Below the pieces are notes generated by a model that was not told the origin of the DNA, made no database searches, and worked only from the letters and a program-made list of their open reading frames with translations. The translations under genes and the position numbers were made by a program. From Podarcis cretensis (taxonomy: Eukaryota), in NCBI GenBank assembly GCA_951804945.1, contig OX638156.1, positions 35,030,001 to 35,094,000 on the forward strand: a DNA stretch of 64,000 nucleotides. Reading direction: 5' to 3'. Positions 6,671-48,282 of the stretch are shown one piece after another. Position 1 is the first letter of the stretch. The number at the start of each line of letters is the position of its first letter.

Positions 6671-6755
6671 CTGTGGTTTGCTTCAGAAGGGCCTGCCCGT
6701 TCTTAATGGCCTGGTCTACATTCTTCTTGCGGTTCATAATCTCATCATTCAAGGC
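6671..6755 (-). CDS. MACF1: MACF1 exon (ALNDEIMNRKKNVDQAIKNGQALLKQTT), 85 nt, phase 0-1
   Basis: cctag|GCC acceptor, ACAG|gtaag donor; read by hand. Confidence 0.95.
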
Positions 6756-7499: not shown

Positions 7500-7826
7500 C
7501 AGGTGGTCGGCATGCTGCCTCTGCAGGATGTCCCGCTTGTAATCCTTGACGGCTACTGAGCTGAGCTTGTCCTCAACCTCAGCCAACCAGTTGAGCACCT
7601 CCACCTCGTCCTCCCCAAAGAGCCGGGCGTTGGACAAGGCCTGGTCAAGAAGGGCAGCCTTCCGGCCACACCGGTCGCAAACCTCTGCATACCGGGACTC
7701 AAGCAGGTCAAGCTTCTCAGCCAGCGAGGCCTGCTCAGCCTGACAGCTCAAGGAGGCCAGGGACTGTCCAGTGTTGACTGCCAGAGCCACAGCTGAGCCA
7801 TGACTCTCTATCTCCTCATCGAGGGC
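7500..7826 (-). CDS. MACF1: MACF1 exon (ALDEEIESH...RQHADHL), 327 nt, symmetric phase 0-0
   Basis: ctccag|GCC acceptor, CTG|gtact donor. Confidence 0.95.
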
Positions 7827-8924
7827 CTGGAGATCCGTGAGATGGTTTAAGAGAAGGGGGAACACAAAACAAGTAGACAGAAACTTATGACTGAAAATGG
7901 AATAAACGGGAAACAAATCTAAAACAAAACTGAGAAATGAGCGTGTCTGATGATCATGCAAACTCAAAGTAAAAATATCCACCCACGAGGGCAATAACAT
8001 ATATGAAATAAATTGTTTAAATAAAGAAAAGTGAGAGATGGGAGTTTTGTTTCATTCTTCTCCGGAGGCCAGGTAATCTCATGAACAGGAGTTATAGCTG
8101 TGGCTGCTATTTTCATAGCTTAAAGAGGAAAAGTTACTGAATTTGGGAAAAGGTGTGTGTGGTGGGGTGTATCTCCCACACAATTCCCTTCTAATGAGCC
8201 AGGATTCTTCCTACCCAGAGACCCCTGATTGACACCAACAATGATTCCTTCTTGCGATTGGCTGAGCTGACGTGACAACACTCAAGTGTTCAAACACGCT
8301 AAGGCTGCAATCCTATACACAATTAGCTGGGAGTATGTCCCACTAAACCCAATGGACCTTATTCCAAGCAGACCCATCTAGGATTGCACCAAGTGCAGGA
8401 TTCTAGGATTTAGTGATATGGGCAATATGCTAGGAACTACTAAAGTTAAAAACCTAAGAACAACCCTGCTGCCGGATCAGTCCAATAGCCCAGTATCCTG
8501 CTCTTATACTGGCCAAACGAATGCCTGTAGGAAGTCTGCAAGCAGGACCCAAGTGTATCGGCGTTCTACCTGTCTCTGATTCCCACACCTGCTATTCAGA
8601 GGTATACTATGTCTGACAGTGAAAGCAGAACATAAGTCATCACGGGTAGTAGCCATTGGCAGTCTTGTCCTGCATGTTCTGAGGCTCAACATTTTGCTTG
8701 GATACAAACCATGAGACTCTTCATTCTGAATTCCAAGCAACTCAACTTGGCTTAAGGATTGTTCCGTTATGACATGCATGTTTCCAACCTCCCCCACCCC
8801 CGCCCCCAAATCTTATTCAGGTACCCAGGTTCCACAGCAGCAGCTATTCTTACTGAAGTGCCTACCGCACAGTGCTCCCCCGTCACCCCCACATTTCACA
8901 ATTCCCTGGCAACCCTTTGCCCAC

Positions 8925-9084
8925 CTTATGCCGGCTTATCTGCTGCTGGATTTTGGCCGTCTGAGTCCCAATGGGCTCCGAGTTGGCCAGTTTCTTCTCA
9001 GTCACCGACAGCCAGTCAGAGATGGGCTCTGATGTCTCGTGGAACTGCTTGGCCAAAACCAGGATCTCCTCCAGCTGGTTTTGC
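8925..9084 (-). CDS. MACF1: MACF1 exon ([14 protein letters not shown]...QQISRHK), 160 nt, phase 2-0
   Basis: ccacag|G acceptor, AAG|gtggg donor. Confidence 0.95.
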
Positions 9085-9599
9085 CTGTGGCAAGAAAAAA
9101 ACAAATCCATCAGCAACAATGGGGGGGGGGGGAGCGAGGAAGAAGATGAGGCTACTTTGCAATTCCTGCAATAACGAAGAATGAAATGAGCACCCAGAGT
9201 ATTTATCCTGAGAAAGTTGAGCAGATAACCAGGTTCAGCTTTTTCACCAGGGATTCTGCTAGAAAGCATTTTAAGAGACTTCCAGGACTGGCTGGAACAG
9301 CCTTCGCCAAGGTGATGCTCTCCAGATGTTTTGGCCTACTACTCCCATCAGCCCCAGCCAACATCTGGAGGGCATCATCTTGGCAAAGGATGGGCAAGAG
9401 CCCCTAGGGTCATTAACTACATCACCCTTTTTTGAAGACAGGATTAATGTATCAAGAGCCTGCCTCATCAACCTTTCAGAGTTCGAGAGTGCCAATAAGA
9501 TTGCTGAAACATGTAGTCTGGCAGACACTGGCAGACACTGCATAGTTGAGCTCCCTAAAAGTTTTCCTCTACCCAAACACTTCTGAATAAACTCAGCAG

Positions 9600-10110
9600 T
9601 CACAGGGTGAAAGGACAGATCCTCTTAAGGATCAGCAGTTGGTTAAAGAACAGGAAACAGAGTGTGGGAATAAACAGACAGTTCTCACAATGGAAGGAAG
9701 GAAGCATGCAGTAAAGTTCCTGAAGGATCTGTGCATTGGAGCTGATGGTGCCCCTGAACTTGTTCAGGAATGATCTGGAGACAGGAGTGAGAAGGGAGCT
9801 GACAAAGTTTGTGGATGACACCAAAGTATTCAGTATGATGAACAACCAAGCGGGCTGTGAAGAGCTCCAAAAGGATGTCTCCAAAACAGGGCAGGCGGTA
9901 ACAAAATGAGAAATGCAGTTCAATGAATATATGAATAAAGTGATAGATGCATGAAGCAAAGCAAAACAAAACAAAAACAAAAACAAAAACAACCCCAAAA
10001 CCTTAATGATATATACACTGATGGGGCCTAAAGTGGAGATGATTGACCAAGAAGGGAATTGTGGGTTCAGTGAAAATATCAGTAATTTTTGTAGCCCCGT
10101 GCAAAAGTTC
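9600..10110 (+). mobile_element. CR1 LINE reverse-transcriptase fragment, decayed
   Basis: encodes NDLETGV...KFVDDTKVF (FADD motif region)...CEELQKD. Confidence 0.8.
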
Positions 10111-10775
10111 TCCTGCACTGACTGCCTCCTCTGAAATGAACCACAGCTGTTATCTGTTCTTGCACAGCTACCATTCATTGAAAGGGGACCTCCCCCTTTT
10201 TCTTACATCTGCAAGGGTGGTCTTGAGGACTGCCCTCCACAGACATTAAAACATCCTGGACTGGCCCTGGATGGTCAAAGGTTATCTGCTACCACTGCTG
10301 GTTTAATTGGTATCTGAATTCTGTATTTTTGTTTTATGCCGATTTAATCTTACAGTTTGATTTTGGTTTATACTGCACATATCTCTATCTTGGCATCTTC
10401 AAGTGAAGGGCAGATGATAAATATTTTAAAGATGAAAGAAATACTGTGGCACAGAAGCGTGTTCCACACGTGCTGCTCATGGTGCTCTAGGACTCACAGG
10501 ATCAATAGGGTTTTTGTGTGTGTGAGTTTTACAAGCAAGAGACTCTCCTGCAAGTAGTGCATCCCATCCTGTGGACACAGTTTGTATTCTTCAGTCCTGC
10601 TAACCACATTCAGCTGCAATGTCCTAGCCATAGGGCTCAGAAGTTCAGAGTGATTTCATTCAGAGCACAGGCATGAGACAACAGCTTGTTTTGCAAAGTT
10701 ATTGTGTGCAATGCACAGGCAGTCACAGTTCATAAAATAACTCGTGTTATGAAACAGCAGGGTTACCAGAGCAAA

Positions 10776-10963
10776 GGGCCACAGCTCAATGGCAGAGTAT
10801 CTGCTGTGCATGCAGAAGGTCCCAGGGGTGCAGCCCCCAGCAGCATCTCCAGGCAGGGCTGGGAAAGGCTCCCTGCCTGAAACCCTGGAGAGCTGCTGCC
10901 AATCAGAGTAGCCTGTACTGAGCTAGATGGACCAATGGTCCGACTCAGTATAAGGCAGCTTAC
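10776..10963 (+). mobile_element. Squam2-type tRNA-derived SINE
   Basis: gggccacagctcaatggcagag head ... ctgaaaccctggagagctgctgcca ... gactcagtataaggcagctt. Confidence 0.8.
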
Positions 10964-11083
10964 CAAAAGAACATCAAAGTATACTTCGCTGGGAGAGGAG
11001 AGCGCAAAGCAAAGGTCACTTTCTCCCGCTTCAGTGCTAAATTACAACAGACAAGCTTGCATCCTACAGGCCTTGTAGCTTAC

Positions 11084-11250
11084 CTGGCTGTAGCTTTGCT
11101 GAGAAGTCCTGCCCAGTGGCTTCCAAGGCTCTCCAGTTGGGCAACTATCTTCTCCCTGTCTGCTGGTTCAGCAGACTGAGCTATTCTCCCACCCTCTGCT
11201 TGGATCATCTCGACAGTAGCTTTCCGGTCATCCAGGAGACGCTGGAGCAG
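11084..11250 (-). CDS. MACF1: MACF1 exon ([17 protein letters not shown]...SKATAR), 167 nt, phase 0-2
   Basis: ttccaaag|CTG acceptor, AG|gtaag donor; read by hand. Confidence 0.94.
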
Positions 11251-11772
11251 CTTTGGAATAAAGTATTAGAAAGTGATAATTATTCTGCTAAGGAAGGAAT
11301 TACCCTTCTGCTTTCAGTAAGGCCAACAGTCCCCAGAGCTCCCCCTCTGCTAAACTCACATTTCCCTCCTACCACTCTTTTAACTGTGCCCTCTTTCTCC
11401 CCTTTCACTCACCACCATCAACTTCAAGTTCCCAGACCTCACCCAACAAAGGCTGCCTTTTATGCCATTCCTAGTGGGGGCTGTCTCCACACTAAAGGTT
11501 GGGTGTCTGCCCCCTATATTGTCCCCTCTCTGTTCTGCAAAGCTCATCAACTACCAACCTCTTTCCTTCCTTCTCCTGCTTATTTGACAATGGCACAGTT
11601 GGTAGATAGAAGCCGTCTGCCAAAAGGAAAGCAAGTGAAACCTTTCCTGTCAACTGGGGATACCTGGGGCTGCTGGTGGAGCTGAGTGCCCAGAGCAGAG
11701 AGAGGCCATGGAGGGTCCTGCCAGCCAGCTGTGCTCTGTGAGTTCAAGGTCCCCTGGCTTCCAACTCCTCAC

Positions 11773-11943
11773 CTTTTGCTCCTGAATCTGAGCCTTCACT
11801 ACTTTATATTCAGCAGATGGCGGCTTCTGGTTGGAGATGAGCTCCTCCGTGTCGGCCAACCAGCTCAGCAAAGGCTCCAAGGCATCCTGGAACTTTCCAC
11901 AATGCAACAGGGCTTCCTGCAGCTGTGCGATCCTCTGCGCCAC
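11773..11943 (-). CDS. MACF1: MACF1 exon ([16 protein letters not shown]...AQIQEQK), 171 nt, phase 0-0
   Basis: atgtag|GTG acceptor, AAG|gtgag donor. Confidence 0.96.
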
Positions 11944-12084
11944 CTACATTTTGCCAGAACATAACAGTCACACATATATATTGCTACAGAAGCATTTACT
12001 GGTCAACCATTTGGAAAGAGTGCTTCTCAGATTCGCTTCATTTTCACAGTCACTGTGCAAGGTAGAACATTACTTCTCTTGAGT

Positions 12085-12557
12085 TCTTCACGGCCTAGGA
12101 CCCTCGTACCTACGGGACCGCCTCTCCCAGTATGCCCCACGGAGGACCTTAAGGTCCATAAATAGCAACACCCTAGAGGTCCCGGGCCCTAAGGAAGTTA
12201 GATTAGCCTCAACCAGAGCCAGGGCTTTTTCAACACTGGCTCCAGCCTGGTGGAATGCTCTGTCTCATGAGACCAGGGCCCTGCAGGATCTGATTTCTTT
12301 CCACAGGGCCTGTAAGACAGAGTTGTTCCGCCTGGACTTTGGCTTGGAGTCTGTTTGATTCCCTCCCCCTCTTTCTTTTTCCCTTTCTCCTCCTGCGATG
12401 AGGATGCATTTTAATGTTTTAATGTTGTATTTTAATCTTGTTTTCAAGTTGTATTCATTCAACTTGTTTTTTGTTATTGGTTGTTAGCTGCCCTGAGCCC
12501 GGCCTTGGCTGGGGAGGGCAGGGTATAAATAAAAATTATTATTATTATTATTATTAA
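12085..12557 (+). mobile_element. L2-clade LINE 3' end
   Basis: translates to LHGLGPSYLRDRL...RAFSTLAPAWWNAL...KTELF (L2 ORF2 C-terminus), then 3'UTR and (TAT)n tail. Confidence 0.85.
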
Positions 12558-13146
12558 TTTTTTTTAAGTGACTATTAACATTTATGTAAAAATCGATTTC
12601 CCAATAATTGGTCACTCTCTAGGATGACCAAGCAACAGAATCCAGAATGAATCTATACAGAGAGAAGCAAACACAACTCACAATGGTGGACAGATCCACT
12701 GGGGGACACAGTTATCTCCCACCCCCAGCCACTTCCCTAAGAGTGCCCCTTTTACCTTCTTTTATACGCAGGAATAGACACTGTGAAGACACTGTGGGGG
12801 GGGGAAGGCCCACATCTATTCTCCATGCCTAGCACTAGGTGGCCTGGCGTTCACTGACAATGATCTTCACTCTGCTCATGGGCAGGCACCCTCCTCCTGC
12901 ATCCTAACAGCTCCCATGCAATATAAATAGTTGAAGTGCATTTTAAATCCCACCTTTCTTCCATCGTGGAACCCAAAGTGGCATACCTGGGGTTCCCAAG
13001 GCATCTCCCATCCAGGCATCAACCATGTTCAGGCCTGGTTAGTTCTGCAAGGTGGTCACCTTGTGTGCCTGCAGGCTGTATCCCACTGCCCCTCCCAGCA
13101 GAAGGACGTTGTTAGTAATGCCGAGGAGCCACCAAGTGCAGCTCAC

Positions 13147-13308
13147 CTTCTTGTTGAGGGTGTTCCAGCGGGTGTTGATGTCCTCCATGTCATGTTCCAA
13201 GCCCTGGACGTCACAATTCTTTCCTGCACTCTGGATGAGTCCCTGTCTGAGCCCATTGACTTGCTGCAGTTTTGCCTGAAGGGGGTCAACTTGCTCCTTC
13301 TGGAATGT
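13147..13308 (-). CDS. MACF1: MACF1 exon ([11 protein letters not shown]...WNTLNKK), 162 nt, phase 0-0
   Basis: ttcctcag|ACA acceptor, AAG|gtgag donor. Confidence 0.96.
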
Positions 13309-13955
13309 CTGAGGAAACATGGAAGCGGGGGATGGGGGAGGGAGAGACAAAGGATGTGAACCTCCATCACAAATCATCAACTGTCTTACTTAGCCTCTTT
13401 ATTTGCTATAGTTTTATCAGGCCGGGAACTCAGGGCAGCATACTGTACATGATTAGCCCCACTCCAATTTTATCCTAACAACAAACTTGTGAAATAGATG
13501 ATGCATTAGTGGAGATTCTTACTGTCCCAAGGTCAAGATGACTGGCTGTCAGTGAACATCAAGGCTATGGAGGGATTTGAATCCAGGTCTCTGTCAGCAC
13601 ACAACATTGATCTAAATCTAACACCAGACTGGCAAGAAGCTGCTCAGTACTTTCAGGCACCCTTGGCCTGCCTTGTACCCCCAAGACTTTTCGACAACAA
13701 TTCCCATCATTCCTGAATATTGGCAGTGCTGGCTGAGCTGATGCGAGTTGCAGTACAAAATATCTGGAGCACACCCAGTTGATGAAGGCTGCCTTAGGGC
13801 AATCCCTGGAGGCTACTGGCTAACCATTTCATTCTGTCTCCAGCTGTGGCTGAGAGCATCTCCTACATATGAATGCCAGACTTCATTTACAGATCACACC
13901 AACCCATGAATGAAGCTTGCAGACATAGCAAGTTAATGAGAATGGACTAGCTTAC

Positions 13956-14010
13956 TAATTGGCTATCAGTATCTTTAGCTGAGGATATAAAGGTATTTGC
14001 AGAGAGGAAT
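13956..14010 (-). CDS. Candidate MACF1 cassette exon B (FLSANTFISSAKDTDSQL), 55 nt, phase 2-0
   Basis: ctttttccag|A acceptor with U-rich tract, donor TTA|gtaagc; open in the phase-2 frame. Confidence 0.5.
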
Positions 14011-14663
14011 CTGGAAAAAGGTTTTAAACACAAGCAAAAAGAAAGAAAATACTGTGTGCAGCTGAGCTATAAAGGGTATCTCTGTAAAAACCAGCCAGCC
14101 AACCTGATAGACAAGAAGAGTGTTAGCTCTGTTGCATTTAGAGTCGGGAGGAAAAGTCATAGCAACAAATGAGGCTGTACTGAAACACAACATGTGGCCC
14201 TAGAAGGCAAAGTGGCCAGCAGCTACATCTCTCTCCACCACCACCTCCTGCACCAGAAAAGCCAGATTAGCTACACACCCACACTCCTCTGTAAACTTGA
14301 CAGGCACAATTCACTCTCTCTCTTGGAGAAAAGCTTATCCACCTCCCTCTCTCAACACCACTGGAGAGAGCACCACATTCCACAGCATGTTCACACCAGC
14401 TGCACAACTGCTTCCTATACACTGCCTTCCACATGCACAAGGTATCATAAACATATGGAAAGTTTGCTGCATTATCACTCAAAAGGACAAAAGAAAGATG
14501 AGTGCAATTGCTCAATCTCCAAGATCTTCCCACGACCTTGTGAGAGGAAAAAAAGCTCCATAAGGCAAAGCAAGGTTTAGAAATAAAGGGAGGGAAGAAG
14601 GTGCGAGATAAAATCAGGAGAAGGCTGTTCCTATCAGGGAGCCCTGGATCTTCTGAAAAGTAC

Positions 14664-14725
14664 CTGATGACAGACAAGACTCTGACAAAGAGCTGCCATT
14701 TCTCCTTCCCAGGAAAGGGAGGCTC
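14664..14725 (-). CDS. Candidate MACF1 cassette exon A (EPPFPGKEKWQLFVRVLSVI-R), 62 nt, phase 0-2
   Basis: long pyrimidine tract ending ttcacag|GAG, donor CAG|gtactt; frame complements candidate exon B. Confidence 0.5.
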
Positions 14726-16225
14726 CTGTGAAGGGGAAATGGTAGCAGAGGAGGAATTAAGAAAAAGGGGAAGGCAGGTAGCTCCTTCACTTGGGAACAC
14801 TACAGCAGAAGAGGCCATTTAGCCATGTGGGCACGTGAAACGCCAAACCTCTGCAACTCCCAGGAATACATATGATCACAGGTAGGGAAGAATCCAATGG
14901 CTGGAATCAAGAGAGAGTCATATGAACACAAATTCCTACACAAAAGATGCTTCCATGTTGGAATTTGCACTGCCTATTCAAGGCTCAGGAAGGCAATCTC
15001 ATCCAAACTGCTCACTGTCAAGCTAAAGCATCCCTGGAAAGAGACCCTTGGGCCCACTAAGGACCAGTTTAGATATGTTTTGGACTACCTGATTCTCAGC
15101 TTGTTGACTCCCAGCTGCACATGTAAACTGATCTCAGTGACGACGACAAGCCCTGTGTGTTTCTGGGAGTTCTGATAATATACCATGATAGAGCGCATGG
15201 CATGTTGCTCTTTCATGTCACTTGGTTCCCTCCCTGTGGAATGGGAAGAACAGTGGCCTGCTTCACACAGAGCTGGGCAAACTCCAAGGAACCATCAACA
15301 GCAGCCACAGTGGCAGATGACATAGGACTGCTTGCCCTGGATGGTTGCTAAACAGCAGAGGCCCAAAGCCAAGCTGGCAGATGGAAATTAAGGAGGATAT
15401 ACTTTATGCTGCAACTTCCTTTTGTAGGGACAGAGCAAAGGATGAGTTTACTAAACCTGCATCCCAATCCCTTCTGCCTCACTTCCATGTCTGGCGCAAA
15501 ATTTTCACTGTGATCTTCAAAGTTCTTTATAGAGGGCTGGATTTACTATTTTTTTATTTAATGAACACAAAGGAGTTATGTGAGTCAATAAACACCTGAA
15601 GGTTTGATGCTGTCCTGGAGAAACATCAACTGTCATTCCAGCGCCTTCCCCTCCCCCCACCTGACCATATCATTCCTGTTTGATTGGTCTAGCACCTCAT
15701 TCTCTTCCCAGCTGCCTCCCGCTCCTCTTGCTGCCCTTTCTCTCCCAGAACTTCCTTTTAAAATGCACACAGTCCCTTCTCCTTCAGCTTACATTGATTC
15801 AACTTATGGGAAGGGCTGTAGCTGCATGGAAGAGCACCTATCACAAGATGCAGGAATAGTCACCAACCTAGATGGCTTTAAAAAGATTAGACAAATTCAC
15901 AGAGGAGAAGGCTATCAATGGCAATTAGCCACAACGGCTATGCTCTGCCTCCATCACTGCATTCAGGTCCAGGCTTCCCATCTTGCTGGCCAGCCGGAGA
16001 ACAGGATGCTGGATTAGTCAGTTCCTCTGGCCTATCAAGGCTCTTCTTATAATTAACTGCTTTGCATGCAGAAGCTCCTAGATTCCTCCGGGCATACTGT
16101 ATTTACAGGAGGAAAACAGGGCAGTTGCCCAGGGTGGCAAATTAAAGGAAGAGGCATTGCATTTAATCTGTTGGGAGCTGCCCAGAGTTGCTGGGAAACC
16201 CTACTGGATGGGTAGGGTATAAATA

Positions 16226-16265
16226 TATTATTATTATTATTACTATTATTATTATTATTATTATT
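16226..16265. repeat. (TTA)n microsatellite (tail of a LINE remnant)
   Basis: direct reading; preceded by gggtagggtataaat. Confidence 0.9.
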
Positions 16266-16996
16266 ACCACCTCCCCACTGCCCTACAAGACAGCAACTCC
16301 TCTCCTCAGAAGGAGGCGAGAAAAAGGGCAGAAGAGCCTCCCATCCCACCATGCCCTTCGAGCCACACCAGCTGCATGCAGCCCCTGGACTGGTTCTTAC
16401 TCTTTGCACGAAGGCTGCCATCATGCACTGCAAGAGACAGTTCTGTGCACACCTTACTTCGGAGGCAGCAAATGTTTTCTGCTTGGGACAGAAGACAGAA
16501 TAAATACATTCACTGTATCCAAGTAGGGGTGGGAAGGAATCCCTAGAGACCTGCTGCCAGTTGTGTAGATACTCCTGGGCTATATGGACCAATAGTCTGA
16601 CTTAAGATTAGGCATCTTCCTACATCCTGGCAGTCTTCCTTTGGACCTCCATTTTAAAACAAAAAGTTGTCTTTAATGCTTCTTCTTATTGGGCCAACAT
16701 CTATTGGCATATCACTGAGACCAGGTGCAAGGAACCTTTCGCCCTCCAGATGTTGCCAAACTGCAACTCCCATCAGCTCCAGAAAGCATGGCTGAAGACC
16801 AAGGATGGTGGGAGTTGTTGTATTTCAGCAACAACTTGAGGTTCCGCACATCTGGTCTAGGCAAGGAGTTTTGTGTTACTCGAAAGCTACAGACATTGGT
16901 TCAGTTATAACAGAGAGCTTTGTCTTGCTGGGATCCTGCCAAGATACGCCACCTAGAAGAGCCTCTTTCTCATGCTTCATTGGGAGAACCCTTTTT

Positions 16997-17002
16997 TTTA
17001 TT
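16997..17002 (-). terminator. Candidate intronic poly(A) signal (AATAAA) for the unspliced KIAA0754-like mRNA
   Basis: first minus-strand AATAAA I found downstream of the 20977 stop (manual scan), at the end of an AU-rich UTR-like stretch. Confidence 0.35.
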
Positions 17003-18103
17003 AACAAGATTTATCAGGTGCCTTTCCAAAAGATCAAGTCAACACACAGCAATTCTGTAAATATCATATTAAAATGCATGATTTGTGCAGGTGTAAGCGG
17101 TAGAATTCATCTGCTGTGGCATTTAAACACAATTACTTCAAACTACAGACTTTTGTTTTATAACAAAAAAAAAAAAAATTAGATGTGTGATTAAATCCCA
17201 TAGGGCATTTAACCATGACCAAATGTATTAAGGTCCAGAGCTGAAAAAACATTCAAATTTCAAGCAGTGCATTACGCAACATGCCCCCCCCCCCGCAATT
17301 TCTTAGTACCTGGTTGCTGGGGTTTTTTTAAGCTGCTGAGTAATTGCTAGAACACAAGACTCCCAGGACGAAGTCTCTTATTCATCCAATAGCCCTGAAT
17401 CACCACTATTTGTCAGTTTGCCCTACCTCATAGGGGTGTCATGATAAATGTCAGCAGCAGGAGTGGGAGAAAGAAAAAGCACGCTCATACTCATTCACAG
17501 CCTCCCCAGGTGCTCTGGACTCCCACTCCTGCCAACATAGACAATGGTGAGGGATGATGGGAGTTGTAGTCCAAAACACCTGGCAAGGTAGTTTTTGGTG
17601 ATCTTTAAGGAGCCCTTTGCTCCCAGGGGAAAGTGGCACATGAAAAGTAAATCAGCAGCAAAAACCACCAAACTGAAGCAATAAATTGCTCTGTTCATAA
17701 GAAAATGAGGAACAGCAACACATTTCTAAAGCTTTGCAGCCAGCTAAAGATTTACCAGCCACTTCCAAACAAAACTGTGCCCAAACTTCCCTATGGTTTA
17801 CGGAGGGCCCTGAGCGAGACAGCTGCGATGCAAGGCAGCAAGAATCTAAGCTTGGAAAAGTCAGGGGGAAATGTTTTCCTCCCTTGCAACGTTCAGCAAC
17901 TTGTCTCCAGAAATGGGAACATGCCAGGATATTAAATGAAGATGCTGTCCAGAGCTATAGAGCCATTCTGCCATAAGAAGGATTGATGGCAACATAACAG
18001 CAAACGACTCACCCAGCCCTTCTGCTGGGACTGCTTATTTTATATTATATATTTTATAGATAGATATAAATGGAAAGGGCCCTCCTACATGCAACAGCAG
18101 CCA

Positions 18104-18104
<1 letters not shown>

Positions 18105-18137
<33 letters not shown>
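18105..18137. repeat. (CA)n microsatellite
   Basis: direct reading. Confidence 0.95.
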
Positions 18138-18140
<3 letters not shown>

Positions 18141-18229
18141 CAGACCGATAAGCCAGGCATGCAAGCTCTCTGAAGGGACATGCCGCCACCTCTTCCTACA
18201 CGCTCCGGCCATAACCTCAAATACAAAAC

Positions 18230-18330
18230 TTATTTTTAAAACGAACACAGGAGAGGACTCCAAAGCATTTCGCTCTGTTCAAGCAAAATCCCCACCCCCA
18301 CCCGCAATCAGGAACAGCTGCCATATTTGG
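18230..18330. promoter_or_regulatory. Candidate muscle-type enhancer: MEF2 + E-box + CArG
   Basis: TTATTTTTAA 18230-18239; CAGCTG 18315-18320 abutting CCATATTTGG 18321-18330. Confidence 0.4.
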
Positions 18331-19003
18331 GTGGGAATGATCCAGAAACCAGAGACAGGTTTAGTGGGGGAGGCTTAAAAACGCAAAACCCAGCCTTAAC
18401 AACCGCCTCGGCAAAAAATACTTGGAAGCATAGCTTAGAGCTTCAAATACAGAACGCGGAGAGGATGCTAGAGCGCTGGCTGGCTAGCTCTCACTTGGAC
18501 AAAGGCGCAAACCTTTCCCTGATTCAGAGAAGCAAAAGCAGCAGCAGGAGGAAAGACTGGAGGGCAAAAGAAAAGGGAGAACAGACACTAACTGCCTTGC
18601 AATAGGAGGGCCAGCATGTGACCCTTTTCCTCACACCAGCCTTCCCCAACATGGCGCCTTCAAGACACACTGACCTACAACTCCCGTCAGCCCCAGTCAG
18701 CACAGCCAAACTGTAGTTCAAAAAATCTGGATGGTGCTACACTGGGAAGGGCCATTTTTAGACAGTAAATATGTGAGGGGAGAAAAGGGGGGGTCTACCT
18801 CTTCCCACTCTTCATCTTAAGAATCTTACCAGATGCAGAAATGGATGGCTTGACAAAAGTACCTTCTTCCCATCTAGACCAATGAAAAGTTTTGGCGAAC
18901 TTAAAAGCTTCTGTACCATTTTGTGACATTTGGGTTAGCCCAATAGAGAAACTAAATGTGCGTGTGTTTGGGGTGGAGAATGCCAGTCCGTGTTCCTATT
19001 CAC

Positions 19004-19222
19004 AGGAGTCAGTGTGGTGTAGTGGTTAGAGTGCTGGGAAATCAGGCTTCAAATCCCCACTCAGCCATGATGCTCACTGGGTGTGGTCTTGGGCCAGCCA
19101 CTCACTCTCAGTCTAACCCACTTCACAGGGTTGTTGTGATTAAGAAATGGGGAGAAGCTTGTAGGCCATATTGAGCTTCCTGGAGAAAGGTGGGATATAA
19201 ATGTAATGAATGAATGAATGAA
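19004..19222 (+). mobile_element. Older Squam3/MIR-like SINE
   Basis: cagtgtggtgtagtggttagagtg head, CORE-like acagggttgttgtga, (AATG)n tail. Confidence 0.75.
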
Positions 19223-20976
19223 TTTGGAAGCAAGTCCTGCAGAATTACCCAGAAAATAAACAGAATTCATCTGTTTGTTATTCTCTGCTTCCCTGCCCTC
19301 CTAATGATGCTACCAGGCTTTCATTTACAAGATGCTTCTCTCAAGACTCTTTTCTAGTATCCTGTTCCCATTCTTCATGGTAAACCTGCTGACCTCTTTC
19401 TCCTACCTAACAGCTGGTTTATATTTTATCCAAGTGCAAATGCAACACACACACACTTGCAATAAATGTATCATGCAGACACACCAATCAGAAAGCCAGG
19501 AGAAGTCATGGCTTCTTGCCTAATGTACTTGCCTGTTCCCCCATCATCACACAGCTAAAGTGAGAATGGAGGATTAGATCAGGAAAACAAGAGATGGTTG
19601 AGTAAGTGGCAGCAGCTAAACACTCTCTCCCTAGTGCAGTTCCAACCATCCAGTTTGGGGGCTCACAGCTGCTTTGCACCATATTAAAAAGTGGGAGATC
19701 CTATCTCATACCTAGCAGCACAACAGTTTGGCAATGTGTGAAATGCCCCATAACCCCTCATAGCTTCTCTTCTCCCCTGTAGAACCAACCATGGCAACAG
19801 CTAAGAGCACCTTCCATATACTTCCCTGGCTGTTTTGACCCTGGGGTGTTGAGCAAATATCTCCCACTCTGGGCACCATAGGACTGATAATGTTTTCTAT
19901 CAAATAGGTCTCTCTCCTCAGACTCAGCTGGACAGACTGTAATAAACCCAGAGCGATAATTCATGTCAGTTTGGCTTAGCTTGGCATCCCCTGCTCCCCT
20001 CCCCCCCACCTTTCTTCCTAATTACAGGTCTGAACTGTACAGTCTTGGCTGTGGGTGCTGCATTTTTTCACTGAGAAAAACTCAGCCTTCTGCCCACAGT
20101 TGGAGACTGTTTTCCACATATGAATTGAACACTACATCATAGCCCTTCTCAAGCCTCTGGCTACTTCTGCTTTTCTTGTTTTTCAAATGTGCAACTGTCT
20201 GAAGCGTGAGAAATTGCAACCAAGCCAAGTTCCTAGGCAGGGGGGTAGGGGGGAAAAACCAACGTCATGACAGTTTAAAAAGTACAAAAAACTAGCTTAG
20301 CTTGGTTGACAACTGTCAAAATCAGTATCCAAAAGAAAACAATGCCCTTTTATAGACGTTTGGTGCTGCAAACAGACTTGGCACAAAAGATTCTCTTTTC
20401 CAAACCCCTTCTTTACTTGGAGATTTAAATAAAAAGTTTTCAGCAACTTCTTTTCTTCTCTATGGATTTGAAAGAACCTTGACTAGGCAGTTGGTTGGTT
20501 TTTATCATTTATGTAATGTTGTTAGCTGGAATTTGCCTTATACTATTTCCCTCTTAGCAACACATTTTCCCATCTATGAGCTCTGCAGCTACCCACACTT
20601 AATCACAATCTTTCACAAGAAAATGTATAATTTGCTTCTAAGCGCATGAACATAATGCTACTTGAATAAGTCAGTTCAAGACATTGGTGGTGGCAAGAAT
20701 ATTTTTACGTAAGCAAGATAATGACAGGTTTGTTCTTGTTTGAAACCCTCCCCACACCTGAAAAGAAAAAGAAACCCACCAACCCAACACTGTTTCTATC
20801 AAAACCATTAAATCTGCCTACAAAATGTAACCCCCTTTCAAAGGGAAGGAGAACCCAAATTTTAACAAAAGGGAGAAAAAGTCAGGCGTGCTTTGTACTC
20901 CAAATTACATCAGTCAGTCAACTATGGATTAACTCTTCGCTTCCTCCCCAACTCCCTTCCTACAAAAAAAGTAATT

Positions 20977-23900
20977 TTATGTCTGATATGGCAGCGTGTG
21001 GGGACCAGGGGAAACAAATACCTCATTATCTGGAACCAATCCATTCGTTTCAGCAGGAGGCCCTTCAGCAGCGAGGGAAGAAAAGGAGGTACTTTCTGAG
21101 TCTGGCACAGCAGAGGTCAGCTCCTCCTCTCCACTTTCAGGTGCTGCAGAAGAGGGCAGCTGTGGTGTGCTGCAAACTGTATCCCACACTGCTCCAGGTG
21201 CCAGAGAGAAGCCAACTTCTGGTGGCTCTGGCACACCATCTGCACCCAATGGCATAGAGATGGCAAGGCCTTTAATTGCTTGGGCCACCTGAACAGGCTC
21301 CTTGGTGGAAGTGGACATTGTGGCATTGGCCAGCTCTTCCAGAGCAGGCCGTTCCTCTCTACTTAGAGGCATATTTTCCAAGGAGAATGGCACAGAAGCA
21401 GAGGACATCTCCTCTGCATTTGGTAAGAATGATATCAGATCCTCTGCTTTGGGCTCTGAAGTGACTCCTGGAAGACCATCTTGATCACAAACTTCTTTAT
21501 ATCTGGACAAGCAGGCAGCATCCACAACAGGCCCCTCTGCCTCTGGGGTTGAAGCAAGTGAGGATGGCAAAGGCAGGGTGGAACATGTTACAGCTTCTGG
21601 ACCATCAGTGATAGAAGGCTCCACTCCAGCAGAAGGAAAGGGGTCAGCAAGCACCTCTGGGCTATCTGGAGGGGCATCAAGAGCCTTGTCACTAGGGAGG
21701 GGACTGACAGAAGCAGATTCCTCTCCAAAAGAAGAGGCCAAGTCTTCCGAACTGGGCTGTGCAGCAAACAAATCTTCAACAAAAGCTTGTGAGTTGGTAC
21801 ACACAAACTTGGCACTACATTCCTCATCCTTTGTTATCTCACTGTCCCTGCTCTGCCCAAAAAGGAACTCCAAGTCTCCAGCTTCCAAGCAATATCTCTT
21901 CTCTTCCACTGGGCTGCCTTTGGCTGCTGCTGCTGCTCCCTGCTCAACTACCTCTGGTGTTTCCTCCTGGAGAAGGGCTGCACTCGCTGACACTTCTCCA
22001 TCACACAGCAGCCTTGTTAAAGGCTCAAGTTGACACACAGCCTTCAAGTTCTCAGAGGAGCCTACATGTTTTAGAGGCTCCTCAGAGTCCCGCAATACAA
22101 ACTCACTTTGTGAAGGCACCCAAGAACTATCTACATCCTCTATGTCACTAACGTGGCCCCCACAAAGGAGGTTTTCTTTATCCAGTTCTGCAACTTCATC
22201 CTCAGAAACCAGCTCTGGGACATCCCAGTTGGAGAAGTCAGTCCTTTCTGATGGGTTGAGCTCATCGCAAGCCTGCAGCTCTTTCCCCATAGCGCTCACC
22301 ATCTCTTTTGCCAAGCCAAAATCTGGTTGGGAGTCCAGCTCCTCAGCAGTTGTGGCAAGTTCATCATGACTCGGGGATACCTCCTTTGCTTCATAGCAAA
22401 TGACAGGCTGCATTTGCTGCTGCTCAGTTTCTCTGCCAATGGCAAGAACATGGATGCAAGGAGGTGGTTCTCTACAGCAAGGGAAATCAACTGAAGCCAC
22501 AGGTTCACCCATGGCAAAGTCCAACAATCCTTTGACCCTCTGGCTTTCTGCAGGGTCATGACCTGCCAACAGTTCTGCCCCATACTCCTCTATCTGACTA
22601 ACTAAGGATGAGAGTGATTGTTGGGATACAGCATCTTTTTCAAGCGGAGGACTGGAAGATGTCACCTTTTCAGAGTCACCAGAAGTTTCCCGTTCAGAGT
22701 AGCACTCTGAAAGGGTAGCTTCTGCTGTACTTACTGCTTGAGAACCACATGTGGCATCAAAGTCTTCCAGATCTGAGACCACAGCAGAGTCTGCCATGCT
22801 GACTTCAAGGTGAGTCAAGGGCTGGGAGGCTCCCGCCATGTCCTTCTGCATGTCCAGCCCTTCTGAACACTGATTAGCATCCTGCACCTCCAGATCACCT
22901 GGAGCCACTCCATCCCCTCCTTCTTCGAGCATGCAAAGCTTTTCTAGTTCAAGGAACATCTGCACAGAATCCGTGTCAGAGAACTGCTCTGGGGCAAGAG
23001 AGCTGGCACAGGCTTCTAGGCCAGAAGCAAATTCCTCCTCTTCCACTTTGGCTGCTACAGCTTCAGCATTGCAGGCACCAGCCTCCTCCTCCTCCTCAAG
23101 AGTAGCGTTTAAGTCTTGGTGCGTTTCCTGGGGAACGGGAGCAGAGTTGACAGCTCGCAGCTGTGAGTCATCCCACAGCTCTTGCCAGTGAGATGGGTGG
23201 TTAGAGGTCCCTTGGACACCAGCAAAACTCTCTACAGCTTCCGTAACTGTCACGGCTGGAACACTTAATTGTTCCTTTTCTTCAGAAATATCTGTCAAGT
23301 AACAACTTCTTTTCTCAGCAGCCTTCCCTGACAGCAAGCCTTCCTCCCACTCCTCCCCAGCCTCCATCATGATCAATCGCTCATCCTCCTCAAACCTCAG
23401 CTCCGACTCAGTCTTTTCCCGGAGGTTGGGGGCGATGAGAATGCTCATTCCGGGGTCCAGGAGCTCTTCACTCAGGCAAGGAGACAGTGGCACCGTTTCT
23501 ATGACACAGTCTGTGTTGTCTGCCTCCAAGGTGTCATGATGCCCACTGCCAAGGCCTGCTCTGATGGCATTTTTCATCACCCGTGGCCACGTGGCGCTCG
23601 AGAGCCTGTGGTCCCGCCGCCTGCCGCCGGTCAGGTCAACTACCATGTCCTCTGGTCCCAGAAGAGGCTGGCACTCATCCTGAGACAACTCACAGAAGGC
23701 TTCACTTAGCTGCTTCACTTCCTGAATTTCTGGAACTCCAGACAGTTTGGGAATGTGCTCCAGGGTCAACGGCTCTGACATGCATTCCCCCTGGTCGGAC
23801 TGCCTAGGGCTCTCTGCCAACATGGCAGTGGACTCCTGCTTCTCTTGCAAGGATGGGTTAGAAACTCCAGCTTCTGAGACTTCACTCAAGGAGGCCTCAA

Positions 23901-24339
23901 TTCTCTCAGCAAACTCAGGGAAATTGGGTGGCATAAAGGACTTCCATGACCGCCTGTTGACATTCTCCTTCTTCTCTGGATTTGGCCGCCGCCTTGGGGG
24001 TGCCGGTGCTGACTTGGAAACATCACTACTAAGTTTCAAGGCATCAAAAATGACCCTCTCGTCTAACTTTTTGCTCTCGGGTGCCTTTGATTCAAAGACA
24101 CTGGGTGCCCCTAAAGTTCCATTGCTAGAGATTGTGCTGCCATCCCCTTTTTCAAGGGTACTCTTGGAAGGCTGGCTAGTCTTGGACCCCTGATCAATTT
24201 GCTCATTTATCCTCATGGTGTCATAGATGGACCTCTGAGGGACGTAACAGTCTTCTATATACCCATCCTCATCCTCTCCTTTCCCCAAGCAAGCAGGACT
24301 CTGCCTTAAACAGTCAGGCCTGCTGAGTGGCTTGCCCAT
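20977..24339 (-). CDS. KIAA0754: KIAA0754-like 1120-aa single-exon ORF / MACF1 alternative first coding exon (spliced form 21022-24339)
   Basis: N-terminus MGKPLSRPDCLRQSPACLGKGEDEDGYIEDCYVPQRSIYDTMRINEQIDQGSK matches recalled human KIAA0754, which is nested in a MACF1 intron; good Kozak context (agtATGG); acidic low-complexity remainder. Confidence 0.9.
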   Translation of the reverse strand: MGKPLSRPDCLRQSPACLGKGEDEDGYIEDCYVPQRSIYDTMRINEQIDQGSKTSQPSKSTLEKGDGSTISSNGTLGAPSVFESKAPESKKLDERVIFDALKLSSDVSKSAPAPPRRRPNPEKKENVNRRSWKSFMPPNFPEFAERIEASLSEVSEAGVSNPSLQEKQESTAMLAESPRQSDQGECMSEPLTLEHIPKLSGVPEIQEVKQLSEAFCELSQDECQPLLGPEDMVVDLTGGRRRDHRLSSATWPRVMKNAIRAGLGSGHHDTLEADNTDCVIETVPLSPCLSEELLDPGMSILIAPNLREKTESELRFEEDERLIMMEAGEEWEEGLLSGKAAEKRSCYLTDISEEKEQLSVPAVTVTEAVESFAGVQGTSNHPSHWQELWDDSQLRAVNSAPVPQETHQDLNATLEEEEEAGACNAEAVAAKVEEEEFASGLEACASSLAPEQFSDTDSVQMFLELEKLCMLEEGGDGVAPGDLEVQDANQCSEGLDMQKDMAGASQPLTHLEVSMADSAVVSDLEDFDATCGSQAVSTAEATLSECYSERETSGDSEKVTSSSPPLEKDAVSQQSLSSLVSQIEEYGAELLAGHDPAESQRVKGLLDFAMGEPVASVDFPCCREPPPCIHVLAIGRETEQQQMQPVICYEAKEVSPSHDELATTAEELDSQPDFGLAKEMVSAMGKELQACDELNPSERTDFSNWDVPELVSEDEVAELDKENLLCGGHVSDIEDVDSSWVPSQSEFVLRDSEEPLKHVGSSENLKAVCQLEPLTRLLCDGEVSASAALLQEETPEVVEQGAAAAAKGSPVEEKRYCLEAGDLEFLFGQSRDSEITKDEECSAKFVCTNSQAFVEDLFAAQPSSEDLASSFGEESASVSPLPSDKALDAPPDSPEVLADPFPSAGVEPSITDGPEAVTCSTLPLPSSLASTPEAEGPVVDAACLSRYKEVCDQDGLPGVTSEPKAEDLISFLPNAEEMSSASVPFSLENMPLSREERPALEELANATMSTSTKEPVQVAQAIKGLAISMPLGADGVPEPPEVGFSLAPGAVWDTVCSTPQLPSSAAPESGEEELTSAVPDSESTSFSSLAAEGPPAETNGLVPDNEVFVSPGPHTLPYQT

Positions 24340-24405
24340 ACTTTTCAAAACAATAAAAGAAAACAGAACAGAATAGAATGGGGGGGACCCTGCAGAGAAG
24401 AGTCC

Positions 24406-24428
24406 CACAACAACAACAACAACAACAA
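24406..24428. repeat. (AAC)n microsatellite in the KIAA0754-like leader
   Basis: direct reading. Confidence 0.9.
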
Positions 24429-24699
24429 AAACCTCCCCTGCCTCACAAGCTCTCCATTCAAAGCAAAATGAAATAGATTATGGTGGAGCAAGGTGTCTTT
24501 TGAAAATCCCTAATAACCACTTGGGAGGCCACAATTTTGTATTCCACAGAAGTTACAGAGCTTTCCAGAGAGAAGTCATCTTCCACCGTGGAAGTCCTTG
24601 AAAGAGGCAAGGCATTCCATGGCTCCTGCGGAAACGCTAGCAGTCCAAGGCCAACACATAAAGCCGTTTCTGCCGATCGCTATTTGCAAGCCCTCTGCC

Positions 24700-26350
24700 T
24701 CCTCCGGCTGCTCGGTAGGGCTGCTCTCCTTAAGGCAAGTCTTCCAGCCCGCTCCGACAAAGCCTCTTCCAGAGGGCGCCCCGGTCGGAAGCTCAGCAGC
24801 GGCGGCGGCGAGGAAAAGGCCAGCTCTCGGGAAGGCGGCCGCAGAGCGCGCTCTCCTGGCGGAACAAAGGCCCGGCCTCCCGCGCGCCTCCATGCCCGGG
24901 CAGAACTGCGCTTTGCAGAGGCTGCTTCGTCGGCCCCTCGGCGCGGCGCGGCTGGCTCGGACTGCGCCCGGCGGCGGAGATCCCTCGCGGTCCCAGCGCA
25001 GGAAGTTCTTCATGCCGGGCGACGTCGGGCGCCTCCAGTCGGCCCAGCATCCTCGGCCGGCGGGCGGGATAGCTGGTTCAGCCCCGCTAGCAAAGGCCCC
25101 GGAAGGTAGCGGGCAGCTCTCCCCGTGCAGTCTGGGAATCTCGGGGCGAAGTCTGCTCGGCGTTCCTCCCTCGCTCAAGGGCGGCGGCAGCCGGCGGACA
25201 GAAGCAGAGGCGCCCCCGCAGGGGACGGGCCGGGACAGCCGGCTGCCGGTGTCCTCGCCGGGCGGCTCTCGGCTCCTACCATGCTCGGGCCGCGCAGACG
25301 GAGCTCTCTCCGCTTGCTTGCTTGCTCGCTCGCTAGCTCTCCAGGAGGGAAGTTTAGTTGGAGCCTTTTGTGCGTCGCGGCGGCGGCAGCGGCGGCAAGA
25401 GCGGGGCCCGCCTCCCCCGGCAGCCGTCCCCGCCGAGCCGAGCCGTGGGCTGCATGTCAAGCGAGCAGCAGGAGCAGGAGCCGCCGCCGCCGCCGCCGCC
25501 CCCTCTTCTGTGCTCCCGAACGGGGCTGCAGCTGTCACGGCCCTTCTCAGCGCACAAACTTCTTGCCGGGGGAACAAAAGGCTGCGCGGCGAGGCTCGCT
25601 CGGCTGGAGGGATGCAGAGCGCGCGACGGCTGGCTGGCTGGCTGGCAGGCCGCTCCTCTTGCTCGCCCTTGGAGGAGGGCCGGCGGGGCGAGACCAAGCA
25701 GCAGTCCGCCCCCCTCCCGGGAAGCCCAACTCCGGCAGGAGAGCTCCGGCCCTCAGCGCCAACGGCTGCGAGATTCCGGCTGGGCCAGCGAGCTGCCAAC
25801 TCCGAAGGGAGGGGACGCGCCGAGTGGCGGGGAGGGAGAGAGGGGAGGGAGGAAGGAGGCGGGGACCAGCAGGCGAGGCGAGGCGGAGCGGGGAGGAGGT
25901 AGGATGGGGGCGGCCTTAGTGAGCCCCAGGCGGGCTCGGCGAAGCCAACGGCCACGGGCGGATCGAGGCGCGGAAATCCAGCCCCGCCAGTCAAGGACCC
26001 GGCCGCTCAGCAGCGGGAAACGCGGCTGGGCGCTGAGCCTGGTCCGCGGGGGAGAAAAGGAATCTTGCTGCTTCAAGGGGAGAAACAACCCCTCCCCCGC
26101 CTTGTCTGGGTCTCCCCCTTCGCCTGGGGCGGAGGTAGCAGCGCAAATCCCTTGACAAAGAGCAGCGGCGCCCTGCGTCCCTCCAACGCGCCCCTCCGCT
26201 GGCTGACTCCGGTTCGCGGAGGCCAAGACTTTTTGGGGGGCGGGGGCGGGGGCGGGGAGAGACGCCTTGCGATCAGCAACCGCCCGCACGACTGCCAGCG
26301 AATCTCTCTCCACCCTCTCTCCGGCAAACAACCGTCCCCCAAACCAGAGA
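24700..26350. promoter_or_regulatory. Intragenic CpG island; probable internal promoter for the KIAA0754-like/short MACF1 transcript
   Basis: abrupt rise in GC and CpG density, GC boxes (ggggcggg) and a (GCC)n tract, directly upstream of the KIAA0754-like ATG on the minus strand. Confidence 0.88.
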
Positions 26351-27313
26351 AATAGAAGGTTCTGCCTCTAGTAGCACACTGGAGCCGCAAAGATGGTAGA
26401 GACGTTTCGTTGGAGCGTGAGAACGCGCCGCTTGAACATGTGCAGAGTGCAGAGCAAACAATCTTCTCAAAGCTGCAATTTTCACTAGGAGGCGGAAATG
26501 ATAGTACCTCACCACTGTCTTCCTCCTAGGCATACAAAACCACTATTCTAAATTGCTGACGTTGGGTTTTTCCAGGAGAGGGCAGGGGAAATAACTTGCA
26601 GATGAGCTTATTAATATGATGGAGCAGGGGAGGTACCTGTGCAGAGTAAATCCCTCTTCCTTAGCTCTTATTTGCTATCCAGCAATTGGCTAAGGAGTTG
26701 CAGGTCATTTAAATCTGCAACCTTACAGCTTTGACAACACTGTGTATGAAAGCATCCTCAATTCCATTTTTTTTTAAAGCACAGGTGTGCATGTGTGAGA
26801 AAACAGCAGGACAGGGTCAAGATGTGTCTTTATGTGGAAATATCTGCACAAAGGTATGCTAGGATATTTCAAATGGGGCTAAAGTTTCATAGTTGGATTT
26901 CAAAGGCGTTTGCCTGACATTTCCCTTGCAACACACCATTTTAGGAGGGCCATAGCAAAGACCCAGCATAACCTGCTTCTAACTACATGATAGGATTAAG
27001 CCCTGTGAAACAAAGAATAAAAAAGTTCCTCTTTTGGGGGCCTTTCTCACACAACATCACACCCACAACCAGCCCTCATGGTACTGTACACTTCCAAAGA
27101 ATAGAATGTGAAGAGTGAGCCTCGGTTAGTAAGGTGTAAAGCCTCACATGAAAAGCTGTGATTCGTCTCTATGCCTCCTTTAAATTTTCAGGGCAATATG
27201 AATGGAGACAGGTAAGTTGGGTCAGATGGAGAGGAAATGCAGCAAGCTTCCCACTTTAGCTGTGGCTAGGGTGGGGTTGCATTAATGAATCACAGCGCAT
27301 TTTGGTCACGCTG

Positions 27314-46142: not shown

Positions 46143-47614
46143 CTTGAAATCTGCCAGCTGCTGGCTGATGACCTCCACTTCTGTCCCAACGACCCACTGC
46201 AAAGCTTCGCTGTCTTCTGCTGTGGCTGTCATGTAGTTCAGCTCCTTTAGTTTGTCATAGAAGTCCTTGACGCGAGCCAGCGTTGTGTCCACCTGCTCCA
46301 GGCGACTTTTGCCTCTTTCGTTCAGTTTGCCACATTGCTTATTTAAAGTCTCCAGCTCACGTTTCAACCCTATGAGGTCAGGGCTTCCTTCATCATCCAA
46401 CATCTGCCTGCATTTCTCTTCAGAAGCTTGGATATCCAGCCTCAGCCTCTGAAGTTTGCCCAGGAATTCATGGACATCCTCTGCTTGAGACTGCAGGCTG
46501 TCCATGTCTCTCCCAACAGAGCCCATGCTGTCCAACTCGTCATCTAGGTCAGCCAGCTGAGAGAACATCTCCCGAACATGATTATTAAACTGGCCAATCC
46601 CTTCAAGCTTGCTCTCCATAAGTTGACAACATTCGTTAACTTTTTGCTTGACTGCTTTGAAGTCTTGCTGGGCAACCTCAGCTTGACTTAAGAGATGGGA
46701 GGAGTCAGACCCATCTGGAGCATCTTCCACCAGGCCCTGAGTGAAATTCCTCAGGTAATCCACCTGGGGTTCCAATGCCTGGATAACCTCCTGTTGGGCT
46801 CTCAGCTTCTCCAAGTTCTTAGTGCTGCAGGCCTGTGGGCCAAGAGCCTCATAGATTTCCAGCTGATGCTTTGTCCCATCTAGTTTCTTCTCAATGTTCC
46901 TAAAGCTTTCTTGGAACTCCTTCAGCCTTTGCGACATTTCTTCCAGGGAACCGGTCTTTGCTTGGAGTTCTTCTGTAATAGCGTCCATCTTCTGGTTGAT
47001 CCCAGCTTTCTCATCCCTAACATCATCCTCATCCATTTCTGATGCATTGATGAGGATATCAGCGGCGCTGTTCAGCATCTCCAGAAGGGAGCGGCGCTTC
47101 TCCACATCGCTCAGCATAGCCTTTGACCTCAGGAGTGTGGCTTCCAGTTGCACTGGATCCAGAGTGACTTCCAGCTCTAGCATCTTTGACCTGCAGTCCT
47201 CCACCCACGGGAAAAGGTCTTCCACATGACGCTGGTATTTCTGAGCCTTCTGTAAGCAGTCCTTGAGTTTAGCATGTCGGTCTGTGATCTGTTTGCTAAG
47301 CTCCTCCCAGTTTGCTTTCAGGTTGACCAGCTGGCTTTGCAAACTGGCTCTCTCCTCGCCGGGATGAATGGAGTGAAGCAAAGACTCGCCCTCTACCACA
47401 ATCAATTCATAGGAGCCCCTGTGCTGGTTGAGGCTCTTTTGGAATTCTTCCTGCTCCTGGATCTGAGACTGCAGCCTCTCCAGCTTAGCTGAGATGGGCC
47501 CGCTCTGTGCCTGCTGCCTCAGCTTGTCATCCAGCCAAGTATGGAGCTCATCAAACATCTGTTGGAATTGCTGGGAGCTGGCAAGCACTGTCTGCAATCG
47601 ATTCATCCGGTCAC
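46143..47614 (-). CDS. MACF1: MACF1 large exon (GDRMNRLQ...SQQLADFK), 1472 nt, phase 1-0, several spectrin repeats
   Basis: ttttcag|GT acceptor, AAG|gtaag donor; lies within the 524-aa ORF. Confidence 0.97.
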
Positions 47615-48282
47615 CTGAAAATTGGAGGAGGCAGGAATACATTGTTAAGATATGCATTTCATAAAGCTAGGAACCTCTCCTAATGTGCCTGATGCACAAA
47701 TCTACATTCCAGTCTTCGCAAATAAGCACCTTTCAGTGAAAAAGCAAATTGGTATACCATTAAAGGTAAGGCAATCTTATAAACCTAGGAAGCCACAAAT
47801 CATAGAACATAGAGTCTATTCAGGGGGATTTAATTGATTCTGTAGGATCCCCAGAACATCTGTTTCCTTAAAAAACGGTTTCTAGACCTTACATTTACAT
47901 AGAGGCAGTGGTCAAAATGGGCTGGGGTGGCATTCCAATTCTTTTCAGACAGACAAAATGGAGCCCAGCTAACCATCCCACTTCTTCTACAGATGCATTA
48001 GGGAAAAATACACCTGAGAGGTGGCATTGGCTGGGGCTTCCTATTGGGCCTGTGTTGGTGACACACTGAGTTTGCTTCATAATGTGTGGAGTGGCCCTGA
48101 GGTTAAGCCTTTCACCACATCTGGTGAGCCAAGGATCTATTGGGTCTTTATTGCCCACACAACTTTCCTGGCTGTTGGGAGTCCTCCTTCTTTGACTAAA
48201 TGCTGTTTGTGTTTCTAAATTCTGCAAATGGTGTTATATAGCACCTGATGACCCCATGTTTTCAAATGATTCATTTCCATAC

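Follow-up and report, generated by a model that had tools for sequence, protein, structure and literature searches.

Here, we show that the large KIAA0754-like open reading frame nested within MACF1 of the lizard Podarcis cretensis is spliced in frame from position 21022 to the distal MACF1 exon at 13308. The frame is best read as belonging to a ~4.8 kb internal alternative first exon, not to a balanced composite exon. The window analyzed is 64,000 nucleotides long (GCA_951804945.1, contig OX638156.1, positions 35,030,001 to 35,094,000), and all coordinates below refer to it. We lean toward a model in which the resulting short MACF1 protein is held by a lipid anchor at its own N-terminus and serves as an actin-independent tether between membranes and microtubules.

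The nested frame occupies 24339-20977 on the minus strand and is listed as 1120 codons (1120 aa). From 24339 to the exon edge at 21022, it runs for 3318 nt, or 1106 codons (21022..24339), encoding an acidic and mostly predicted disordered chain, and the edge reads AATGAG|GTATTT, a phase-0 donor (GAG|GTATTT, 21016..21024). As the sequence-only reading had noted, a transcript left unspliced here would meet a stop 14 codons later (tail and stop, 20977..21021). The acceptor at 13308 (...TTTCCTCAG|ACATTC) is also phase 0, encodes TFQKEQ, and opens the 162-nt first shared exon of the MACF1 spectrin rod (13147..13308, minus strand). The same acceptor presumably serves the canonical upstream spectrin exon, which is placed at 46143..47657 (minus strand; 5' edge not mapped) by its open reading frame, Pfam matches, and sequence. 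Because that exon ends at the phase-0 donor 46143 and the next rod exon begins at 13308, the nested frame sits inside a 32.8-kb intron, on the same strand as its host and ahead of the FQKEQ exon; a GAS2 exon of this genome lies 26 kb past the left edge of the window, also on that strand. Scored as matches to the nine-letter donor consensus, donor 21022 and the donor in use at 13147 each have 6 of 9 letters, and the canonical donor at 46143 has 7 of 9.

Splicing was assessed in 8 of 24 sequencing runs, four examined as assembled contigs (X16, X1, X13, and X14, from four studies with four organism labels) and four as raw reads (organism A). In every contig run, assembled contigs end exactly at 21022 and then carry 28 loose letters, which are identical to window 13308-13281 in X16 and X14 and depart from it at two letters in X1 and X13, confirming the junction that the sequence-only reading had proposed from phase compatibility. 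The contig runs are guessed to be RNA or are unlabelled, and none of the runs is recorded as RNA; a contig end that skips an intron argues that these runs derive from RNA. We take the contigs to have been built with 31-letter words. The length of 28 letters would fit a merging of this junction with the canonical one in the assembly graph, where a 30-letter overlap loses the AG common to both donors. Raw-read depth over the nested exon is thin (0-2.7 across the four runs), and the exon at 13308 carries 12-29 reads in three bulk runs. First mates map to the plus strand in the three stranded bulk runs, indicating RNA of the minus strand in most libraries. The 21022 joint is absent among the joints listed (15 of 63) from raw reads over 8800-26600; interspersed repeats filled these tables (15 of 63 joints and 24 of 769 loose ends listed), so the ratio of junction to read-through reads is uncountable from them. 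A second acceptor suggested earlier, at 14725, is preceded by AG and so exists as a candidate in the sequence. It was rejected, as loose ends reach it in none of the four contig runs and depth in the bin 14146-14739 is 0-0.04 in the four raw-read runs.

A contig running unspliced from a CpG island at ~25.8 kb to the donor suggests that the nested exon is an internal first exon (21022..25825, minus strand, 5' end approximate). One X14 contig of 4777 nt spans 21022-25822 without a joint, X1 contigs cover 21022-23822 and 23891-25825, and joints are absent within 20150-26600 in all four contig runs. The longest contigs end at 25822 and 25825, inside the island (24501..26500), where GC content is 0.62-0.73 and CpG observed/expected is 0.77-0.94, vs 0.06-0.35 in the flanks. 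Contigs cannot reveal the true start, but base composition and contig ends suggest that the island is likely both an internal promoter and the 5' part of the first exon, with transcription beginning near 25.8 kb. The long 5' leader (24340..25825, minus strand) holds ten upstream ATGs, none in open frame with the main frame. This CpG-island first exon had gone unremarked in the sequence-only reading, as had the dystonin paralogue and the invariant extreme N-terminus described below.

The same junction recurs in gene models of other vertebrates. Protein searches returned 247 near-length matches, of which those listed (120) bear the name KIAA0754 homolog or "MACF1 isoforms 6/7"; the best named homologues among the matches listed come from a skink, snakes, and a gecko, in keeping with the squamate context of the sequence-only reading. 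The human protein KAI2516368.1 (P0073; E 3e-144 against the lizard frame, 57% identity over the N-terminal 41%) joins ...NSDE to MFQKEQ, turkey P0045 has the equivalent junction, and the fused form is already present in public annotation of human, birds, snakes, and fish as "MACF1 isoforms 6/7," so the earlier suspicion that the architecture is not new was well founded. All 71 longer matches contain spectrin repeats and a CH domain is listed in none; 49 of them contain the junction motif, with VPDNE directly joined to xFQKEQ in 12, and since most fused models are gene predictions they do not count as independent evidence from RNA. The shared MACF1 part measures 2,169-2,290 aa in eight complete fused models. 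A Pfam scan of four fused models found spectrin, EF-hand, and GAS2 domains in three and spectrin only in an incomplete hagfish model, with no CH or plakin match in any of the four, in keeping with the earlier prediction of a product that lacks the CH and plakin domains and retains the distal spectrin repeats and C-terminal domains. Conservation of the donor, on which the earlier reading also depended, extends through squamates and beyond: the exon-end motif occurs in the last 80 residues of 93 of the 118 stand-alone-length matches (many of the 25 without it are truncated or amphibian) and is followed by Val, as encoded through the donor GT, in 88, by the end of the protein in 2, and by a different residue in 3.

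The N-terminus of the exon product carries an invariant motif (Gly2, Lys3, Ser6, Cys10, Cys17; 24289..24339, minus strand) that is a predicted myristoylation and palmitoylation signal. The start is MG in 164 of 191 matches, and residues 1-6 and 8-12 are identical in 164 of these 164 and Cys17 is present in 162, an apparent conservation favored by retrieval with the lizard sequence itself. In a 36-row alignment reaching from hagfish to mammals, with both paralogues and teleosts, Gly2, Lys3, Pro4, Leu5, Ser6, Pro8, Cys10, and Cys17 are all invariant. Proteins that are both myristoylated and palmitoylated follow the pattern Gly2-x-x-x-Ser6-basic with cysteines close by, and this N-terminus, with its Met-Gly start, Ser6, basic residue 7, and neighboring Cys, fits it. 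From this invariance and motif, we infer that Gly2 is myristoylated and that Cys10 and Cys17 are palmitoylated. Pro at position 4 may disfavor NMT. NMT tolerates Lys3 in some twelve human substrates, ARF6 among them (PMC7048800).

In the 36-row alignment, invariant columns also occur across residues 29-49 and 92-103, and a block reaching well past an acylation signal makes a protein partner likely as well. A rather unlikely alternative is therefore that the same spliced short isoform has no lipid anchor and is placed by a partner, with the conserved N-terminus being a protein-binding module (or degron). The first 160 aa (23860..24339, minus strand), common to the dystonin paralogue, show mean identities of 0.82-0.93 to 14 homologues in steps of 40 aa, and further conserved islands, which would suit such a module, lie near 250, 285-320, and 453-467; past residue 560, identity drops to roughly 0.2-0.3 in an acidic chain. 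AlphaFold gives the N-terminal model low confidence (pLDDT 57.4, pTM 0.19) and predicts three short helices (38-49, 94-104, and 141-151) with no compact fold, as would fit coupled folding on a partner; a second low-confidence model of the exon product has a mean pLDDT of 42.6. The exon product has no Pfam family, CH and plakin included, residues 1-164 match no PDB sequence, and the ESM Atlas holds nothing for it. The supplements of one HeLa myristoylome hold no entry for KIAA0754/O94854 (PMC4200515), a cell line that may not express it. Set against a purely protein-placed product, the strictest block of both paralogues opens directly with Gly2 and includes Ser6 and two Cys, and divergent teleost copies carry additional Cys near the N-terminus. 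The two readings can both hold.

The sequence-only reading had proposed a composite exon giving both a stand-alone KIAA0754-like protein and a new N-terminus for a truncated MACF1, their ratio being set by a weak donor. The second half of that proposal stands with the splice found in all four contig runs; the stand-alone half is not supported, as no read-through was seen, and that both products are functional with donor strength setting their ratio now appears improbable. Contig depth below 21014 is 0 in all four contig runs, and depth at 19492-20679, beyond 20680, is 0 in all four raw-read runs, but contigs drop rare variants and reads resembling human DNA were filtered out, such that a minor read-through form could be missed. 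A stand-alone product is also favored by the curation of the mouse protein as "Isoform 7" (NP_001161390.1, P0092), by the stand-alone length of 118 of the 120 near-length matches listed, by tails whose first 5-6 residues are alike among mammals and among birds, and by ATTAAA signals within 0.5 kb of the stop of the dystonin paralogue. In the lizard MACF1 copy, however, the first AATAAA is at 17002, ~4 kb beyond the stop, the read-through tails are 4-62 aa long and differ between lineages, and the donor proposed to be weak scores like a constitutively used one. The stand-alone protein is thus likely a minor read-through product. It is very improbable that the exon is transcribed and spliced yet hardly translated, with the internal promoter or the RNA being what matters: the ten upstream ATGs could suppress translation and raw-read depth is low, but across vertebrates a reading frame of some 950-1,600 codons has stayed open and near-invariant amino acids are kept, and X14 indels are frame-preserving in the coding part (3, 6, and 9 nt) vs 1, 4, and 10 nt in the leader.

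A genome search revealed a second copy of the exon in the same lizard genome (G000:C3:92087015), within dystonin (DST/BPAG1), with 61% identity over 152 aa. This copy is flanked by the counterparts of the 46 kb and 13308 exons; its donor, which follows residue 429, is phase 0, as is the acceptor, and its N-terminus groups with dystonin-type rows in a clade with 100/100 support in a midpoint-rooted tree. The two nested exons thus share intron, phase, and first 12 residues, and the dystonin exon, known here from sequence alone, differs in being shorter (429 codons) and in having no CpG island of MACF1 size. Fused short dystonin models are also annotated in mammals, birds, reptiles, and teleosts. 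A HMMER scan gave 52 matches, and the 20 named clusters looked up are all from vertebrates, including whale shark, sturgeon, and hagfish; invertebrates are absent among the named matches of this single-sequence search, in which unnamed matches remain. In the hagfish model P0215, the nested-type N-terminus leads, after about 607 residues, straight into the homologous FQK exon. Hagfish is in neither the N-terminal tree nor a spectrin-part tree (6 of 22 rows dropped for want of an anchor motif, P0122 on a long branch), and with midpoint rooting in each, the trees do not assign the hagfish copy to a MACF1, DST, or pre-duplication type. Given the paralogous exon in the same dystonin intron and the hagfish fusion, the arrangement is older than the divergence of MACF1 and dystonin and likely older than the cyclostome-gnathostome split. 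A Fig. 1 legend from 2017 (bioRxiv 10.1101/122010) mentions one more exon that dystonin and MACF1 have conserved and that may form a separate isoform or an alternative start; it is probably the nested exon described here.

In the lipid-anchored tether model, the 4.8 kb exon, joined in frame to the distal rod exons, would give a product of ~3,300 aa, with 1106 novel residues and, judging from homologous gene models, about 2,170-2,290 shared ones. Contigs do not prove a single transcript from ATG to GAR exon, and it is the homologous models that suggest the full short transcript. The shared part would contain 12-15 Pfam spectrin matches, EF-hands, and the GAR domain, but neither a CH nor a plakin domain. 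A stretch of about 900 residues that is acidic, poorly conserved, and predicted to be disordered may serve as a spacer, with the EF-hand/GAR region binding microtubules while the lipids hold the membrane, all without actin. If so, MACF1 and dystonin have an actin-independent mode of linking membranes and microtubules. Since the short form starts mid-gene, it would escape knockouts that hit the 5' half as well as truncating variants found there in patients, and alleles truncating upstream of the host intron would leave it intact. More tentatively, it may represent a third, overlooked class of spectraplakin, older than the hagfish/jawed vertebrate split and present in both paralogues, in which an acylated N-terminus replaces the actin-binding half and pins microtubules to membranes; such a class could explain why 5' truncating variants differ from GAR-domain variants. 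The value of these data lies in the deep conservation across two paralogues and in a lipid-anchor hypothesis that is open to testing.

Compared with known forms, the lizard exon is orthologous to the first exon of human KIAA0754 / MACF1 isoform 6, with the same junction to the FQKEQ exon, and is without the long EEP-type repeats of mammalian KIAA0754; the runs used here gave no sign of the stand-alone form (mouse isoform 7). With classical spectraplakin isoforms, the fused form has the spectrin rod, EF-hands, and GAR in common and lacks the plakin and usual CH domains. Alternative starts that drop actin binding are already described for MACF1c and MACF1-4 in a 2021 review (PMC8012552), which gives six known isoforms of 600-800 kDa, all said to keep the plakin domain. 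Unlike these, the nested-exon form loses the plakin domain along with about half of the rod, counted from its start, and it is missing from the six-isoform lists in that review and in a 2026 clinical paper giving the same six (PMC12918444). Per the same review, Rab21, CAMSAP3, ELMO, GolginA4, and EB1 act at the distal repeats and C-terminus and would mostly be kept in the short form, and Axin, LRP5/6, MKKS, and Talpid3, which act at repeats 0-2, would be lost; retention of the CAMSAP3-binding repeat (residues 4023-4134; bioRxiv 122010 Fig. S4 legend) depends on isoform numbering. Lipid attachment has precedents in this family, with a putative myristoylation motif for membrane anchoring in dystonin-a3 (PMC3352338) and a caspase-made C-terminal MACF1 fragment (G5087) that is post-translationally myristoylated (PMC4200515). 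The Asp-Gly site homologous to G5087 lies at window 46712, 190 residues ahead of the host intron. That fragment would likewise be a myristoylated rod-plus-GAR piece, but it arises by apoptotic proteolysis with no promoter of its own and is without the 1106-residue leader. Among the matches listed, our literature searches found no paper linking KIAA0754 to myristoylation and none on this isoform beyond the 2017 legend, and, judged by title and abstract start, no functional study stands among 36 listed papers that name KIAA0754, with subscription literature mostly outside the search scope. The exon structure is thus already known to databases and the protein is unstudied within the literature searched; to this, we add the paralogous exon in lizard dystonin, the hagfish fusion, and the invariant first residues in 164 of 164 MG-starting homologues.

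The 5′ leader of the nested exon extends for ~1.5 kb (window 24340-25825) and contains 10 upstream ATGs, which open ORFs of 4-145 codons, a pattern that suggests translational control. A good-looking splice acceptor also lies within the leader, at 24390/24389, and no splicing at this position was seen in any of the four runs aligned as assembled contigs. Some bird and snake gene models add upstream residues ahead of the N-terminus.

Four teleost proteins (P0216, P0217, P0221, and P0226), one of them named si:ch73-305o9.3, are divergent copies that retain the first 8 residues of the nested exon and have gained Cys residues in adjacent pairs. Annotation treats them as stand-alone genes, and they possibly represent a duplicate retaining only the nested-exon start. 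In the lizard dystonin gene, a paralogous nested exon (G000:C3:92087015-92088301, equivalent to L002:1501-2787) runs for 429 codons to a predicted phase-0 donor.

Downstream in the window, two similar exons form a tandem pair (7695-7829 and 6666-6755), of which the human fused gene model (P0073) takes the former and the turkey fused model (P0045) goes instead to the latter. The dystonin gene carries a matching tandem pair, and this region looks like a conserved alternative segment. Interspersed repeat fragments at 9306-9364, 11770-12480, 13693-13723, 16740-16792, 17542-17583, and 18686-18710 draw numerous reads originating elsewhere in the raw-read alignment.

Finally, sequence comparison shows that lizard MACF1 keeps an Asp-Gly site (46712, minus strand) 190 residues upstream of the host intron. 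This site is a predicted second route to acylated C-terminal MACF1, besides the nested exon; its human homolog, G5087, is given in the supplements of a published study (PMC4200515) as a myristoylated N-terminus produced by caspase.
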